Below, piece after piece: positions 7,607 through 16,802 of a stretch of DNA of 32,000 bases (position 1 is its first letter; each line of letters opens with the position of its first letter). Below the pieces are notes generated by a model that searched no databases, was not told where the DNA came from, and was given only the letters and a program-made list of their open reading frames with translations. The stretch lies in assembly GCA_963699255.1 (NCBI GenBank), contig OY969425.1:450001-482000 (forward strand). The letters are read 5' to 3'. Position numbers and translations under genes: made by a program. Origin of the DNA: an uncultured bacterium (lineage in GTDB: Bacteria > Margulisbacteria > WOR-1 > CAVSGV01).

Positions 7607-8628
7607 AGCTTGTTGATCTCGCGGATAAGACCGGTAAATTTTCCATAACTATTCCTGTCAAATTTCAGGCTGAGCCTGAAAAGGTCCAGTTTATCATCGG
7701 TCTTTATTTCTTCTTTTACCGGTTTGCAGCATTCGATCTTCCCTGACAGCAGTATGTCCTTGTACTTCTTGTTGAGCTTTTCGATCTGATGCGCGGAAAG
7801 TTCCTTGTTCAATCTTATGATAGTGGTGTCCCCGACATATCTGAGAGAGTTATAGACCTTATAGAAATCCGTGATCTCATTTACAGCGTCGCGGACGGTA
7901 TTGACGACCCTGAATAAATTTAGGTCATCCTTGTACAGGAGGTTCTTCTTCATCATCGCGTCCTTGACGAATCTAAGCCAGCTCTTCCAGTATGAGCCGA
8001 ACAGGGTGTCAACAAAAACAAGAGGGCGGGGAGATGTCTTTCCCGTCTGCAGAAGGGTCAGCACTTCAAAAGCTTCATCGTGTGTGCCGAAACCGCCTGG
8101 AAAAAGTACCGTCGCATCCGATTCCTTGATGAAAACCAGTTTTCTGTTGAAGAAATATTTAAGTGTAACAAGCTTCTCGCCCCTTATGTATGGATTAGGT
8201 ACCTGCTCGGTCGGGAGCTTGATGTTTACGGCAAAACTCTTGCCCGGCCTTGCTCCTTTGTTCCCGGCTTCCATGATGCCGCCGCCGCCGCCGGTTATTA
8301 CCATCCATCCCATTTCAGAGACCTGTTTCGCGAAACTCTCCGCCATTTTATATTCAGAGGACTTGGCGCTTATTTTGTGTGACCCGAAGATGACGACCTT
8401 TCGGATGCTGCGGTAAGGGGAGAAGACCTTGAACGCATATCTCAGCTCTTTCAGGGTCGAATTAAGGATCTTGATGTCCCCGACATCCCTCAGGTCGCCG
8501 GAAAGCTTGCAGATCGTAGTGAACATCTGGCGGTAGAACTCTGTGGTTTCGCTGTTCCCGTATTTTCTTGCCAATTCATCGATCACTTTGTCGTCATTAA
8601 TATTGCCCAGACAGTACTTCTTTTCCAT
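7603..8628 (-). CDS. LOG-family (TIGR00730-like) protein with N- and C-terminal extensions; possible nucleotide 5'-monophosphate nucleosidase (PpnN-like)
   Basis: Motifs [24 protein letters not shown] and [12 protein letters not shown] (LOG PGGxGTxxE). The track start at 8646 is a TTG. I prefer ATG 8628 (MEKKYCLGN...) because TTGACC-17nt-TATGAT sits 6 nt upstream of it. Confidence 0.78.
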
Positions 8629-9953: not shown

Positions 9954-12287
9954 GTGAGCACCGCGGAACCGCTAATAACTAACAGAGCGTTGATAAGACA
10001 AGCCCTTTCCCTTAACAGGACGGAATACAAAAAATTCAAAACACAGCATATAAATGATCCTGTGATGAACAAGGAACACCAAATATGGAACATTAGCTCG
10101 AACGCCGCCAAATTCCTTTATGATGCCTTTGGTAACCATAAAGCAGTTGTAGCCGCATTGCTGATGCCCGTTGAAAGAAATAAGATCAAGGAAATCGACC
10201 AATCCCTGTATTCCATCATAACAGCATATGACAAGATGATGGATTTCACCGTCCCGACCAAACCTGACGCGTCTATTATAAATAATCACTACAAAATGCT
10301 TATTGCTGATCCGTTACTGAGAGGAAAGTTTTCCGGAGAAGACCTTTTAAGCGCCCATTTTTTGATGTTCGGCATGATGCAAAGCACCCTAAAAAAAGGG
10401 ATACCGGTGATCGAGCTCTTTTACAGGGATCCGCTCATACTGTCGCAAATGGCGCTTTCCACGGCAAAGCTTTTGAACCGGTTTCAAAAAGATCTCGAAG
10501 CTTGCCAGTTGAAAGACGCGGCACTTAACATAATCAACCCCGACTTATACAAATTTGCGGAAGAACATGGTTACAATGATATACCGGAGTTCGTTTTGCT
10601 GAAAAAAAAGGATGAATTGCTGGCCGAACTAAGTAATAAATGCACGGAAGTATTTCAATATCAGGAGGGTTTCAGTTTCGAGGTTAAAGGAAGGCTGAAA
10701 GCGCGCCAGAGCATAGTGGACAAAATGGAAAAGAAAAAAGGTAAAAAGGTCCTTGATATTCTGGGCCTCAAAGTGATCGTTCATTGCCCGCATGGTCCAA
10801 GCCAGATCAGGGCACTTGAGGAAGCGCTAAAGGCGGCTAAAATAGATGAACAAAAAAGTGAAATAAAAAGACTCTATAAGGAAAGCTCTGATCAGCTTTA
10901 TTATCTAAGATCAGCAATATACTCTTACGCTCAAAAGAATGGTTGGATAATAAATAAAAAAGAATCTGATAATTATGTGGCGAAACACAAGGAAAACGGA
11001 TATCAGGCATTGCACGATAATTATCAGATCAAAATAGGGAATAATGCCATCACGGTCGAGATCCAGCTTCTCACGGATCAGATGTACCACTATAACAACA
11101 CGATAGCAAGCCACGATGAATACAAGGGAGGAGAGGGGCTAAAAGGGGATTATGCGCCAAATGAGACAAATAAGATGTTTGACGAGATCCAAAACGACCT
11201 CTCACCTAATGTTTACGCGTTCGTCAAAGAAGAAAATGACATATCCGGGCCATATGAGTTATGCCCGAAAGAAAATTCCTATGGGATGCCGCTTGACTTG
11301 CTTTCCCACATTAATTCTTACGACTCGCAGCGTTTTTATATATATCAGCAGGGCAGGGAATCACTCATAAAAAGTGATGACAGGGTCAGGAATGGATCTG
11401 TTATAGGGGGTAAGGGAAAAGCCAATCCAGGAATGGGAAGGATCGAAAAACTTTACGGTACGGAGACCGGAAAGAACGCGGCTCGATTTAATTTGGACAG
11501 CAAAGCCTTGAAGGAAAGTGAAATCCTGGCCATGGAAAGGAACGGAAAAACTTTCCTTGACAATTTGATCAGCAATGGGAGCAACGGCCGGGAAAACGGA
11601 ACAAATGGCGGATCAAACGTTGTTTTCCTTGAAAATCATTTTCTTGACGAATTAAAATATAATGATATTGTCACCGCTTATTTTTATATTGGCAAAAATG
11701 AGACTTTTCGCGAGAAACTAAAAAATGAAAAAAACAAATATCTGCTAAATTATACGTTTGATGCTGAAAAGGGGAAGATCACTTTTAGCGGGCATAACGA
11801 CTCGCTCTTTGTAAGGGCCATCATGAGGTATTTAGCCGACACGAACCGCAGCATGAGATCCGTGCGCCAGTCCCCTGACGGGGATAAGATGATCTTCACC
11901 GCCGAATTGGACAACTTCTCAAAAGAGGACCTTATGAAATTGACGGAGTATCTGAAAAAAACAGGCAACGTCAGAAAGCTATATAATAACCTGCCCGCAA
12001 AAACCGTCATTGATAAGAAGCTGAAGATCACGTTCAAAAGCGATGAACCGGGAATGATCTACAAGGTATATTTGTTATTATGCAAGAATAGTTGTTATAT
12101 ATCCTCGTTCGAATCCGGCGAAACGGCGCCGGGAACCAGCGCCTCGGCTGATTTTATGGTAAAGTTCCCCGGTAAATTCAACGATGAAAAATACAAACAG
12201 CTGCTAAATGAAATAAAGGACCTCCCTGACGCGTATGTTAAGAGGGCCAGATTAGACGTGACAAAGGGCGTTACTTTCGAAGTTTGA
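9954..12287 (+). CDS. highly divergent long RelA/SpoT homologue (degenerate HD region, RelA_SpoT synthetase-like, TGS-like and ACT-like C-terminus)
   Basis: GTG start with GAGGGG 9 nt upstream. Synthetase-like block: KGRLKARQSIVDKMEKK...VLDILGLKVIV...DNYVAKHKENGYQALH...TVEIQLLTDQMYHYNNTIASHDEYKG. HD-like remnant: AVVAALLMPVERN (canonical AALLHDvvED). TGS-like: VYAFVKEENDISGPYELCPKENSYGMPLDLLSHI...DDRVRNGSVI. ACT-like: LKITFKSDEPGMIYKVYLLL. The 777-aa length fits a long RSH. Confidence 0.7.
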   Translation: MSTAEPLITNRALIRQALSLNRTEYKKFKTQHINDPVMNKEHQIWNISSNAAKFLYDAFGNHKAVVAALLMPVERNKIKEIDQSLYSIITAYDKMMDFTVPTKPDASIINNHYKMLIADPLLRGKFSGEDLLSAHFLMFGMMQSTLKKGIPVIELFYRDPLILSQMALSTAKLLNRFQKDLEACQLKDAALNIINPDLYKFAEEHGYNDIPEFVLLKKKDELLAELSNKCTEVFQYQEGFSFEVKGRLKARQSIVDKMEKKKGKKVLDILGLKVIVHCPHGPSQIRALEEALKAAKIDEQKSEIKRLYKESSDQLYYLRSAIYSYAQKNGWIINKKESDNYVAKHKENGYQALHDNYQIKIGNNAITVEIQLLTDQMYHYNNTIASHDEYKGGEGLKGDYAPNETNKMFDEIQNDLSPNVYAFVKEENDISGPYELCPKENSYGMPLDLLSHINSYDSQRFYIYQQGRESLIKSDDRVRNGSVIGGKGKANPGMGRIEKLYGTETGKNAARFNLDSKALKESEILAMERNGKTFLDNLISNGSNGRENGTNGGSNVVFLENHFLDELKYNDIVTAYFYIGKNETFREKLKNEKNKYLLNYTFDAEKGKITFSGHNDSLFVRAIMRYLADTNRSMRSVRQSPDGDKMIFTAELDNFSKEDLMKLTEYLKKTGNVRKLYNNLPAKTVIDKKLKITFKSDEPGMIYKVYLLLCKNSCYISSFESGETAPGTSASADFMVKFPGKFNDEKYKQLLNEIKDLPDAYVKRARLDVTKGVTFEV

Positions 12288-12304
12288 AGCGATTATTTGC
12301 TTTC

Positions 12305-13615
<1,311 letters not shown>

Positions 13616-13617
<2 letters not shown>

Positions 13618-13745
13618 GAAATTGGGGAATTAGGAAATTTGGAACAAAGTTTAGGAATACAGGAAAACGGGAAATTGGTTACCCATTTTCCATATCCCCT
13701 TTTCCCTAAACTCATTTCCTCTATTCCTGTCCTTCCATATTTCCT
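13616..13745. repeat. 130-nt imperfect palindrome with a purine-rich left arm and a pyrimidine-rich right arm (GGAAA-type ~8-nt units)
   Basis: Left arm 13616-13678 (47/63 purines), loop TTAC 13679-13682, right arm 13683-13745 (52/63 pyrimidines). The outer AGGAAAT/ATTTCCT, the loop-proximal GGAAAxTGG/CCAxTTTCC, and GTTTAGG/CCTAAAC are complementary. The interior pairs only with bulges. Confidence 0.7.
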
Positions 13746-13772
13746 TAGTAATAATTTTGATCGGATAAAAAT

Positions 13773-14441
13773 ATGATTAAGAAAGCCATTGTACTGCTCT
13801 CAGGCGGGCTTGACTCAACGACCACCCTCTATTACGCAAAGAGCAAAGGATATGAATGCCGCGCGCTGATATTCGATTACGGCCAGAGGCATAAACGGGA
13901 GATCCGTTCAGCGGTTGCGGTGGCGAAGCGCGCCTATATACCGTATCAGATATTAAAGATCAAGCTGCCCTGGAGGGGATCGGCGCTTCTTGATGCCGGA
14001 TACAGGATGCCAGAACGATCATTGAAAAAAATCGGCAAAGGGATACCTTCGACATATGTTCCCGGCAGAAATACGATCTTTCTGAGTTTCGCGGTTTCTT
14101 ATGCAGAAGCTATCGGCGCGAAAGCTATCTTTATCGGCGCGAACGCGATAGATTTCAGCGGATATCCTGATTGCAGGCCGGGATATTACAGGGCTTTCCG
14201 GAGCGTTATCGGCAAAGGGACGAAAGCAAAGAACATAAGGATCATAACGCCGTTGATTAAATTGAAGAAATCGCAGATAATAAAGCTCGGACTTAGGCTC
14301 GGCGCGCCTCTCGACCTGACATGGTCATGCTACAGGGGCGGAAGGCGGCCGTGCGGCGTGTGCGACAGCTGCAGGCTGCGTGAAAGGGGATTCAGGGAAA
14401 TTGTTAAGGAACCCGCGACTAAACGTCGCGGTTCCAAATAA
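13773..14441 (+). CDS. queC: 7-cyano-7-deazaguanine synthase
   Basis: 222 aa. PP-loop VLLSGGLDSTT, FDYGQRH, and the C-terminal Zn-cysteine cluster WSCY...CGVCDSCRLR. Confidence 0.93.
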   Translation: MIKKAIVLLSGGLDSTTTLYYAKSKGYECRALIFDYGQRHKREIRSAVAVAKRAYIPYQILKIKLPWRGSALLDAGYRMPERSLKKIGKGIPSTYVPGRNTIFLSFAVSYAEAIGAKAIFIGANAIDFSGYPDCRPGYYRAFRSVIGKGTKAKNIRIITPLIKLKKSQIIKLGLRLGAPLDLTWSCYRGGRRPCGVCDSCRLRERGFREIVKEPATKRRGSK

Positions 14442-14487
14442 TCATATCGGTATGAACAGTATTAGCAGAACCCATGAAGATATAAAG

Positions 14488-14513
14488 GAGCCGAGGCGTT
14501 TAGCCTCAGGCTC
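14488..14513 (+). terminator. GC-rich hairpin downstream of queC
   Basis: GAGCCGAGGC (14488-14497), loop GTTTA, GCCTCaGGCTC (14503-14513), with one bulge. No clear U-tract follows. Confidence 0.4.
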
Positions 14514-14527
14514 ATAGGAAATTAAAT

Positions 14528-15346
14528 ATGAATCCGTTGATATTTGTCTGTGTATTCACGGGAATAATACATTTCATCGAGACGATCGCGTCCTCGATGA
14601 GGCTTGCGGGGGTGCGGACAAAGAACATCGCCACATCGCTTTCGTTCGTCAACGCCACGCTTCTCGTATCAAGGCTCTCGAACATGCTCCAGGCCCCCAT
14701 TCTTGGAGGGATGGTGGATTCTGCGATACTGAAGCACGACACCTCAATTCTTCTCAGCCAGTTCAGGATGGTGGTGTTCGCGGCGTTCATCGGCAATCTG
14801 GTCGGGGCGGCGCTTGTCCCGTTCTTCGTCTCGGTCTTCACGGAGGGCATAGCAGAATTCGAGAAGATCGGGTCGCTTCCAAGGCTTTTGCTGGGGACCT
14901 TTCATCCTAAGAACATCGCTTCCATGGCGAAGAAATTCAGGCTGCCGTCAAAGAAGACATTCTCAAGGCTTAGCCTTCACAACCTGCCGAAATGGTTCAT
15001 CTTCTGGAACCTCCTTATGGTCTCGATATACGCCATCGGAGTGCTTGCGTCGCTCTATGCCGGAGCGAGAGTTCCCGAGTACAGGGTAACGGCCACGCAG
15101 CTTTCAGGGATAGTCAACGGCATCGCGACGATACTTCTGACCCTGCTGGTGGACCCCACCTGCGCCCTTTTAACGGACCAGGCGATAAAGGGGAAAAGGA
15201 AAGAGGACGACGTAAGGACAATGGTCTTTTACATCATCGCGGGCAGATTGCTCGGGACCCTTATGATCTCGCAGCTCATATTCCTGCCGGCATCCGATTA
15301 TATAATGAACGTTACCCTGCTCGTTAAGAGGATGTTCGGGCAATAG
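14528..15346 (+). CDS. amj: Amj-family (DUF2837) lipid II flippase-like membrane protein
   Basis: 272-aa polytopic membrane protein. The N-terminus (IIHFIETIASSMRLAGVRTKNIATSLSFVNATLLVSRLSNMLQAPILGGMVD) resembles what I recall of B. subtilis Amj/YdaH. AGGAAA lies upstream of the ATG. Confidence 0.6.
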   Translation: MNPLIFVCVFTGIIHFIETIASSMRLAGVRTKNIATSLSFVNATLLVSRLSNMLQAPILGGMVDSAILKHDTSILLSQFRMVVFAAFIGNLVGAALVPFFVSVFTEGIAEFEKIGSLPRLLLGTFHPKNIASMAKKFRLPSKKTFSRLSLHNLPKWFIFWNLLMVSIYAIGVLASLYAGARVPEYRVTATQLSGIVNGIATILLTLLVDPTCALLTDQAIKGKRKEDDVRTMVFYIIAGRLLGTLMISQLIFLPASDYIMNVTLLVKRMFGQ

Positions 15347-15360
15347 AAAAAATAGCAATT

Positions 15361-15386
15361 CACAATGACACAATGAACAACAATGT
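15361..15386 (+). repeat. left inverted-repeat arm flanking the Avd-like gene (CACAATGA CACAATGA ACAACAATGT)
   Basis: It matches the reverse complement of 15833-15858 at 22/25 with one 1-nt gap. Confidence 0.7.
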
Positions 15387-15434
15387 TGCCTCGCTTACGC
15401 TCGGCGGTTAATATATAATAATGCACAATCAACT

Positions 15435-15800
15435 ATGAAATTCGACATTAGAGACAGATCTAAAAAGTTCGCTATAAGAGTAATTAAACTTATTAATAAG
15501 TTCTCAAAGGAACTGGCTTTACAGGAGATCGCGCATCAGTTGGTCAGATCTGCCTGCTCGATAGGCGCTAATCTTGAAGAGGCAGATGCTGCTTCTTCGC
15601 GAAAAGATTTCTTCCATAAAGTATCGATTTCTTATAAAGAAGCGAAAGAAACAAGATATTGGCTTGACTTGATCCTTGAAGCAGAACTGCTTAAGAACCA
15701 ATCAAATATAAAAGAGGCTGAAGCTTTGCGCAACGAAGCTATTGAATTAAGCAGGATCTTATTTACGATTTTTGAAAAGAAGGATAAAAATAATTGTTAA
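15435..15800 (+). CDS. four-helix-bundle protein (23S rRNA intervening-sequence protein / Avd-like family)
   Basis: 121 aa. Family signature LVRSACSIGANLEEA...SRKDFFHKVSISYKEAKETRYWLDLI. TATAAT (15414-15419) lies upstream. Confidence 0.85.
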   Translation: MKFDIRDRSKKFAIRVIKLINKFSKELALQEIAHQLVRSACSIGANLEEADAASSRKDFFHKVSISYKEAKETRYWLDLILEAELLKNQSNIKEAEALRNEAIELSRILFTIFEKKDKNNC

Positions 15801-15819
15801 AGAGTAATAATTTTGATGA

Positions 15820-15843
15820 TGTCGCGGAGCGACACTTTGTTGT
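15820..15843 (+). terminator. small hairpin with a T-rich tail downstream of the Avd-like gene
   Basis: TGTCGC gga GCGACA (15820-15834), followed by CTTTGTTGTT. Confidence 0.3.
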
Positions 15844-15858
15844 TAATTGTTAATTGTG
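15833..15858 (+). repeat. right inverted-repeat arm flanking the Avd-like gene
   Basis: CACTTTGTTGTTAATTGTTAATTGTG is the reverse complement of CACAATTAACAATTAACAACAAAGTG. It overlaps a possible ribF promoter: TTGTTA 15840-15845, 17 nt, TATTAA 15863-15868. Confidence 0.7.
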
Positions 15859-15872
15859 AAATTATTAATTAA

Positions 15873-16802
15873 ATGAAGATAATCAAATTTAATGAACATA
15901 TAAAAACCAGATCGATCGTTTTAGCCCTTGGCAACTTTGACGGCGTCCACGCAGGCCATCAAAAACTGATCCTTGAGGCGCTAAGATTTGCCAGAAGGAA
16001 AAAGCTTCCGTGTTTCGCGATGACTTTCGATCCGCATCCCCAGGAAGTGGTCGATCCGGGACGGGGGCTTTGTCTGCTGACCACTTTATCCGAAAGGATC
16101 GGCCTGATGCGAGGTCTGGGCGTTGACGGGGTCATGGTCAAGGAATTCAGCGAGAAGATATCAAAGCTGCCGCCTGAAAAGTTCATATATGATTTCCTGG
16201 TGAAACACCTTAAGGCCAGGAAAGTATTCATAGGCTATGATTTTGCGTTCGGCCACAAGAGGTCCGGGACCATATCCACCCTGAAGAAGCTCGGGGATAA
16301 ATACGGTTTTGCGGTCAGCGCTGTCAAGCCCGTGATGACGCACGGCCATCTCGTAAAAAGTTCCACAATACGCGACATGCTTTCCCGCGGCGACTTCAGC
16401 AAGGCGGTCAAGCTTCTGGGACATCCTTACACGATGACCGGCCTGGTCGTAAGGGGCAGGGGGAGGGGAAGGGCACTGGGGTTCCCCACGGCCAACCTTA
16501 GCATCGCACCGGACAAGCTGGTGCCCGCCCAGGGAGTATATGTGGGGCATGTCGGCAGACGCATGTGCCTTGTTAATATCGGTTCGCGGCCCACTTTCGC
16601 CGAGGAGAAGTTCGCGATAGAGGTCCACATCCCCGGCTTTCACGGCGACCTGAGGGGAAAAGTGGTCCAGGTGGACTTGTTCAAGAGACTTAGAGATGAG
16701 ATACATTTCGCGGATGTTGAAAAGCTGAAATATCAGATCAGAAAAGATATTGAAAAAGCAAAATTATTAATCCCCCGCTCGCTTCACTCGCACCCCCTTT
16801 AA
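15873..16802 (+). CDS. ribF: bifunctional riboflavin kinase / FMN adenylyltransferase
   Basis: 309 aa with LGNFDGVHAGHQ, GRGRGRALGFPTANL and EVHIPGFHGDLRGK. The last ~11 codons (LIPRSLHSHPL) are encoded by a C-rich hairpin element and look like a non-homologous tail. Confidence 0.92.
   Translation: MKIIKFNEHIKTRSIVLALGNFDGVHAGHQKLILEALRFARRKKLPCFAMTFDPHPQEVVDPGRGLCLLTTLSERIGLMRGLGVDGVMVKEFSEKISKLPPEKFIYDFLVKHLKARKVFIGYDFAFGHKRSGTISTLKKLGDKYGFAVSAVKPVMTHGHLVKSSTIRDMLSRGDFSKAVKLLGHPYTMTGLVVRGRGRGRALGFPTANLSIAPDKLVPAQGVYVGHVGRRMCLVNIGSRPTFAEEKFAIEVHIPGFHGDLRGKVVQVDLFKRLRDEIHFADVEKLKYQIRKDIEKAKLLIPRSLHSHPL

Follow-up and report, generated by a model that had tools for sequence, protein, structure and literature searches.

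The AT-rich segment of ~514 bp (positions 15357-15870) that lies between the amj stop and ribF start codons is probably an inserted counterpart, outside rRNA, of the 23S rRNA intervening sequences (IVS) that contain an ORF, and a representative of a large class of cassettes, the arms of which would form a stem that is cut by RNase III and would be recognised by the protein encoded between them. The window, that is, the whole stretch of 32,000 nucleotides that was analysed, covers positions 450001-482000 of a Margulisbacteria genome consisting of a single contig of 1.77 Mb with a GC content of 47.5%; positions refer to the window unless the genome is named. The GC content of the cassette is 35%, compared to 53% for amj and 52% for ribF. 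The features of the cassette and its neighbours are listed in Table 1.

Table 1. Positions, in the window, of the features of the amj-ribF cassette and of the adjoining genes.
Feature	Position	Strand	Remarks
amj (alternate lipid II flippase)	14528..15346	+	upstream neighbour; PF10997, E=8.6e-90
Left arm, AATTCACAATGACACAATGAACAACAATGT	15357..15386	+	about four AAT-type units of 7 or 8 nt
Inner hairpin 1, GCCTCGC-TTAC-GCTCGGC	15388..15405	+	imperfect here (5/7 pairs)
AT-rich spacer with TATAAT at 15414-15419	15406..15434	+	TATAAT 15 nt 5' of ATG
Gene for four-helix-bundle protein	15435..15800	+	121 aa; GC 36%; PF05635/TIGR02436 family
AT-rich spacer 3' of stop codon	15801..15819	+	AT-rich at the same position in all relatives of the subfamily
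Inner hairpin 2, TGTCGC-GGA-GCGACA, then CTTTGTTGTT	15820..15834	+	perfect stem; terminator-like
Right arm, CTTTGTTGTTAATTGTTAATTGTGAAATT	15835..15863	+	complementary to left arm; AT tail to 15872
ribF (riboflavin kinase / FAD synthetase)	15873..16802	+	downstream neighbour; PF06574, PF01687, TIGR00083

The protein encoded in the cassette was assigned by profile searches, in which it exceeded the curated cut-offs of both PF05635 (E=7.5e-21; 74.8 bits versus 33.8) and TIGR02436 (E=7.3e-25; 87.3 bits versus 24). The nearest solved structure is that of a Bacteroides protein (PDB 2RLD, five chains; E=3.8e-20), and these three matches bear out the Avd-like four-helix-bundle identity that had been read from the sequence alone. 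No catalytic site is evident in the helical bundle of 121 residues. Purifying selection on the protein is strong: dN/dS was 0.08 against the orthologue in the related genome G003, with a second value of 0.04. PF05635 is known as the IVS protein and as a relative of Avd (PMC4990558, PMC10053308), and the protein shares its small four-helix-bundle fold with the homologous Avd of the diversity-generating retroelement of Bordetella phage BPP-1 (PMC10053308). This homology is what speaks for the gene being the Avd accessory protein of such a retroelement. That assignment was rejected, with a negligible probability left to it, because there is no RVT_1 match, and thus no reverse transcriptase, anywhere in the 95%-complete, single-contig genome. 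Moreover, a template/variable repeat pair was not seen, and the genomic context differs from that of Avd, the neighbours being amj and ribF.

The arms were examined by a repeat search, which yielded two inverted-repeat pairs at the cassette (15357-15380/15847-15870 and 15370-15386/15834-15850), and by gapped alignment of 15359-15386 with 15834-15860, which gave 24 matches, 3 mismatches and 1 gap over 28 columns. The placement of the ORF between inverted arms, earlier described with 22/25 identities and one gap, is thereby confirmed at 24/28 and one gap. On either strand, the predicted minimum free energy structure and the centroid structure are both closed by the arms; complementary ends forming a long stem around an ORF, as in the rRNA IVS, are thus present. 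When all upstream flanks were paired with all downstream flanks (RNAduplex), the mean energy was −79 kcal/mol for cognate and −58 kcal/mol for non-cognate pairs; the amj-ribF copy ranked 4th in its row, in a matrix of low power for this AT-rich copy since the background of long flanks is too high for it.

Because the arms are rich in AT and repetitive, naive counts of identity come out too high, and their inverted similarity could be a chance product of low-complexity intergenic DNA. The arm score of 34 was, however, reached by none of 3000 random genome positions (maximum 30) and by none of 300 dinucleotide shuffles (maximum 28; z=6.7), so that the similarity stands against composition-matched nulls. 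The same layout recurs in 8/10 paralogues and in 59/72 distant loci (see below), and AAT-N4 arrays of four units number 96 in the genome, versus 1, 6 and 3 for periods of 6, 8 and 9 nt. A chance origin is refuted by the nulls, the recurrence of the layout and the period counts together, and we regard it as next to impossible.

Inside the arms, both small hairpins that had been pointed out earlier exist, but only the one at 15820-15834 has a perfect stem, that at 15388-15405 forming 5 of 7 pairs. Inner hairpin 1 is also found in the cassettes of G003 and G039 (perfect stem) and in a gene-less copy at genome position 241462. Inner hairpin 2 was flagged as intrinsic-terminator-like by consensus match, and in relatives and gene-less copies its stem is kept with compensating changes (TGTCGCC/GGCGACA, TGTGCC/GGCACA, TGTGC/GCACA and ATCGC/GCGAT; these variants were read directly, the MAFFT alignment of the inner hairpin being out of structural register). 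By its sequence, hairpin 2 looks like an intrinsic terminator. The TATAAT motif lies 6-7 nt 5' of the ATG in the cassettes of G003, G135 and G039, and this proximity hints at a leaderless transcript in these relatives. A promoter role may be ascribed to the motif at 15414-15419 as well; there, a promoter scan returned no full −35/−10 match on the + strand. Since the TATAAT lies in the loop and hairpin 2 is terminator-like, the gene's own transcript may lack the left arm. The suggestion that the right arm carries a promoter for ribF did not hold, as 3 promoter-like matches were found versus 2.1 expected and those on the + strand end inside ribF.

Some observations concern ribF itself. A Shine-Dalgarno sequence was not seen for ribF in the source genome, G003, G005 and G002. 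The start of ribF abuts or overlaps the stop of amj in most relatives, and the N-terminus of RibF has ~10 additional residues in family f1 compared to the other families.

The genome contains 10 PF05635 genes, none of which lies inside a 23S rRNA gene; the only 23S gene (genome 1759891-1762832) measures 2942 nt versus a model of 2925 positions and is uninterrupted. Arms were scored for all paralogues, and 8/10 lay above the 99th percentile of the null, 6 of them above its maximum. The expectation that other copies of the family would be flanked by inverted arms of their own was therefore borne out. The arm pairs of the paralogues are all mutually different (GAGATGC, GAAGTTA, ACAAATC and GGCGATA types, for example). 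In 4/10 copies (genome 716331, 182431, 1426332 and 1093498) a sigma-54-type motif, (T)GGCA-N6-TTGCT (GGCA-N6-TTGCW), directly precedes the left arm; only 46 such sites occur in the genome, which encodes sigma-54. No motif of this type precedes the left arm of the amj-ribF cassette.

Two further loci of the genome carry an ORF between inverted arms. At 496633-497225, a 180-aa ORF lies in the loop between CAACGGAT-type arms, and at 951952-952780 a 174-aa ORF on the minus strand, ORF6N-like by eye, lies between GAAGT-type arms.

The history of the insertion was followed by comparing the amj-ribF junction in 29 relatives. In 24/29, ribF lies directly 3' of amj, and in G002, for example, the junction consists of TAG, 13 nt and ATG. 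The sequence-only reading of an IVS-like ORF insertion outside rDNA is supported by these empty sites. The orthologous cassette was found in G003 (Amj 81% identical), with a protein of 72% amino acid identity, the same arm type and inner hairpins, and one additional left-arm copy inside the cassette, 3' of the ORF. In the closest relative, G005 (Amj 89%), the junction is without a gene; a 123-nt hairpin is present instead, with (CAAGACT)n arms quite different from those of the target and a similar core hairpin. The CAAGACT arm type also occurs at several other G005 loci. Synonymous divergence between the source genome and G003 was 2.3 for the cassette gene and 1.55 for amj, and that of amj between the source genome and G005 was 0.81. 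The values for gene and amj fit vertical residence, and the cassette has therefore long resided at the amj-ribF site. It was inserted there in an ancestor common to the source genome and G003, and comparison of the three genomes indicates that the junction was remodelled again in the line of G005. Neither an armless gene in all relatives, nor armless paralogues, nor arms that fail against the nulls, the three outcomes on which the insertion reading was to be abandoned, was observed.

No target-site duplication was seen in filled versus empty sites at amj-ribF and tig-clpP, and no transposase or nuclease accompanies the cassette; a transposase is absent both in it and near it. An extension of the arms by AATT had been proposed as a candidate duplication. 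The extension itself is present on the left (15357-15360) and on the right (15860-15863), the right copy requiring a 1-nt bulge, but AATT is the palindromic end of an AATTAAC-type unit and the empty sites are without it, so it is not a target-site duplication.

In G005, CAAGACT-type matches on contig C104 (L012) lie at 7623, 12179-12206 (the amj-ribF junction) and 13740. The match at 13740 is just upstream of amj (12220-13035), and the junction copy alone was read as a full hairpin.

Gene and arms behave as one unit also outside this junction. The nearest homologues of the protein (63-67% identity) are encoded in G122, G136, G135 and G039, which belong to three other families of the class. Their cassettes lie at unrelated gene junctions, yet match the amj-ribF cassette in arms, inner hairpins and AT-rich spacers. 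The 29-nt left arm is 86-90% identical among these cassettes while synonymous sites are saturated, which indicates that the arm sequence itself is constrained, beyond complementarity. Over 82 cassettes, the sharing of arm 6-mers was 0.51 at 60-80% protein identity versus ~0.06 below 45%, and arm similarity correlated with protein similarity (Mantel rho 0.34; 0/500 permutations). The arms are conserved in sequence, and they vary from one protein subfamily to the next. In other Margulisbacteria, 23/29 loci are armed. Across phyla, arms were found at 59/72 testable loci, in a sample that was drawn with the motifs of one subfamily and is biased to that subfamily; these loci come from Acidobacteriota, Chloroflexota, Planctomycetota, Omnitrophota, Cloacimonadota, Bacteroidota, Gemmatimonadota and CPR lineages, and their arms contain AAT-containing units of 7 or 8 nt in nearly all cases.

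A relation between heptamer arrays and the gene family was also seen at the level of whole genomes. In 146 genomes of the phylum, the number of arrays correlated with the copy number of PF05635 with a Spearman rho of 0.70 (0.44 inside the class and 0.38 outside it), and the median was 34 arrays in genomes with the gene versus 4 in those without; these statistics are inflated by the relatedness of the genomes. Exceptions are G017, with 10 genes and 4 arrays, and G144, with 45 arrays and no gene.

In some cassettes the arms occur in additional copies. In those of G003 (L013/L042), G039 (L046) and G122 (L043), the left arm is repeated in direct orientation downstream of the ORF, by which the 3' part becomes a complete short hairpin, and in G145 (L047) a complete hairpin lies 5' of the ORF instead. 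With such extra copies and complete hairpins beside the ORF, alternative pairings of the arms are possible.

Gene-less hairpins are abundant in the source genome. A genome-wide scan returned 80 strong inverted repeats, most of which are hairpins with a short loop, built of 7-nt repeats, that occupy whole intergenic gaps, typically at 0-30 nt from both neighbours. The arm type of the target occurs without the gene at about 14-26 further loci, and the left-arm 28-mer is present with up to 3 substitutions at 7 loci of the genome. For several gene-less arm types, no gene-bearing partner was found in this genome. The gene-less copies have in common a core, consisting of a GC hairpin and an AT-rich stretch, and an internal mismatch of GACAC opposite GAGAA; because this mismatch is shared, they derive from one another. 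Their counterpart in G003, G122 and G039 is the 3' module that follows the ORF. Seven relatives (G003, G001, G005 and four more) lack the copy between tig and clpP, which is therefore a recent gain in the source genome; G002 has a different hairpin there. Taken together, cassettes are gained and lost at gene junctions.

Several known systems resemble the cassette in part. Intergenic elements made of heptamer repeats are known from cyanobacteria as STRR sequences, and the tandem period of 7 nt and the intergenic position are both found here. Similar elements are the GGGAATC arrays of Xanthomonas, which include ~70 inverted pairs (PMC4692102), the elements of four tandem heptanucleotides in Geobacter metallireducens (PMC2700814) and the TAACTGA repeats of Beggiatoaceae (PMC4679880). 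Like the arms of the cassette, heptamer elements consist of tandem 7-nt units, often four per array, lie between genes near gene ends, often occur as inverted pairs able to form stem-loops, and turn over rapidly between relatives. They differ in that the papers on them make no connection with a gene family (PMC4692102, PMC2700814, PMC4679880), whereas here a gene cassette and its gene-less copies have such arrays for arms. In the literature searched, we found no description of the PF05635 family inside heptamer hairpins outside rRNA.

The Correia elements of Neisseria are MITEs with inverted repeats that, once transcribed, are cleaved by RNase III. Like these, the gene-less copies are multicopy and have terminal inverted repeats, and elements of both kinds are short hairpins at gene junctions; those studied here would likewise be co-transcribed with their neighbours. 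Unlike Correia-type MITEs, those studied here are without target-site duplication and without a transposase-bearing parent, the sole gene-bearing copy encoding the helical protein of 121 residues, and their arms are tandem heptamers that differ between copies.

The closest likeness is to the 23S IVS of Coxiella burnetii (the S23p IVS) and Leptospira, which encode a protein of the same PF05635 family (PMC4990558). The IVS measure 428-444 nt, versus ~514 nt for the cassette, and have a stem of 28 bp with one mismatch and one bulge, versus ~27 bp with three mismatches and one bulge (PMC4990558). Both have an ORF in the loop of a terminal inverted-repeat stem, a GC content below that of the host and a sporadic distribution. 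The IVS lie in helix 9, 25 or 45 of 23S rRNA and the cassette lies between protein-coding genes; excision by RNase III has been shown for the IVS and is inferred for the cassette; and heptamer-array arms and many gene-less copies are peculiar to the cassette.

By analogy with the rRNA insertions, the cassette could be tolerated as follows. Transcription of the amj-ribF operon would read through it, and the arms would pair on the operon RNA to form a stem of ~27 bp. In Coxiella, the 28-bp stem of the IVS is cut mid-stem by RNase III (PMC4990558). The host enzyme, the gene of which is encoded in the genome, would cut the arm stem likewise, and the insert would thereby be removed from the operon RNA. 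Excision of the cassette by RNase III is plausible. The heptamer arms, in turn, would be recognised by the cassette's own protein, which would explain that arm and protein co-vary.

An excess of G:U over A:C among the arm mismatches was not found, either in 34 Margulisbacteria cassettes (66 versus 61) or across phyla (109 versus 111). The mismatches do not point to selection for an RNA stem on the sense strand, and a role of the arms at the level of DNA is therefore a serious rival: the arms would be terminal inverted repeats, or a single-stranded DNA hairpin, of a MITE-like element moved by a host or trans-acting enzyme, and pairing in RNA would be incidental. The symmetric complementarity, the multicopy gene-less derivatives with their common internal mismatch and the recent gain at tig-clpP are all in line with this explanation, as is the apparent position of terminator-like and promoter-like signals inside the arms. 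It has to contend with the lack of a target-site duplication and of a transposase in or near the cassette, and with arms that differ among the copies of one genome, so that one enzyme could not recognise them all. Furthermore, the same layout is known from rRNA, where it is transcribed and cut (PMC4990558), and the four other copies with a sigma-54-type promoter before the left arm would have both arms transcribed. We consider a DNA-level role possible, and clearly less probable than the reading as an IVS counterpart.

More doubtful is a third explanation, by which the hairpin is a host regulatory device at operon junctions (a terminator, insulator or mRNA-stability element) and the gene a passenger in its loop. 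Many gene junctions are filled by gene-less heptamer hairpins, the core is a GC hairpin between A- and T-rich runs and resembles a two-way terminator, and the heptamer arrays of Geobacter have been read as regulatory sites (PMC2700814). On the other hand, the orthologous junctions of most relatives work without a hairpin, the arm type tracks the protein subfamily across genomes and phyla, and a terminator that separates ribF, an essential gene, from amj would do harm rather than good. We think it improbable that regulation accounts for the hairpin.

The reading as an IVS counterpart can be widened to one that we offer tentatively and think rather unlikely as a whole. PF05635 proteins would be sequence-specific readers of their own heptamer arms, and protein and arms together would constitute mobile cassettes without a conventional transposase; the heptamer hairpins of many genomes would be gene-less derivatives of such cassettes, and the 23S IVS would be one landing site among others. 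Three puzzles that are decades old touch here, namely the nature and origin of the rRNA IVS, the role of the very abundant 'IVS protein / Avd-like' family outside retroelements and the excess of 7-nt repeats between genes. The amj-ribF locus and its relatives join them in one object with a defined anatomy, with filled and empty sites and with an arm sequence that co-varies with the protein. For annotation, it is relevant that such inserts lie inside operons beside essential genes, in this case ribF.

Other hairpins were noticed upstream of amj in the window. The whole gap between purA and queC (13619-13747) is a gene-less hairpin of GGAAATT/GGAATAC-type heptamers, with arms at ~13619-13682 and ~13686-13747 of a type different from that of the target. 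Two small dyads lie at 14409-14435 (GGAACCCGCGAC..GTCGCGGTTCC), overlapping the last codons of queC, and at 14487-14513 (GGAGCCGAGGC..GCCTCAGGCTC). Both are members of another multicopy family, that of the paired GGAACC hairpins, which is present at no fewer than 10 loci of the genome and looks REP/BIME-like.
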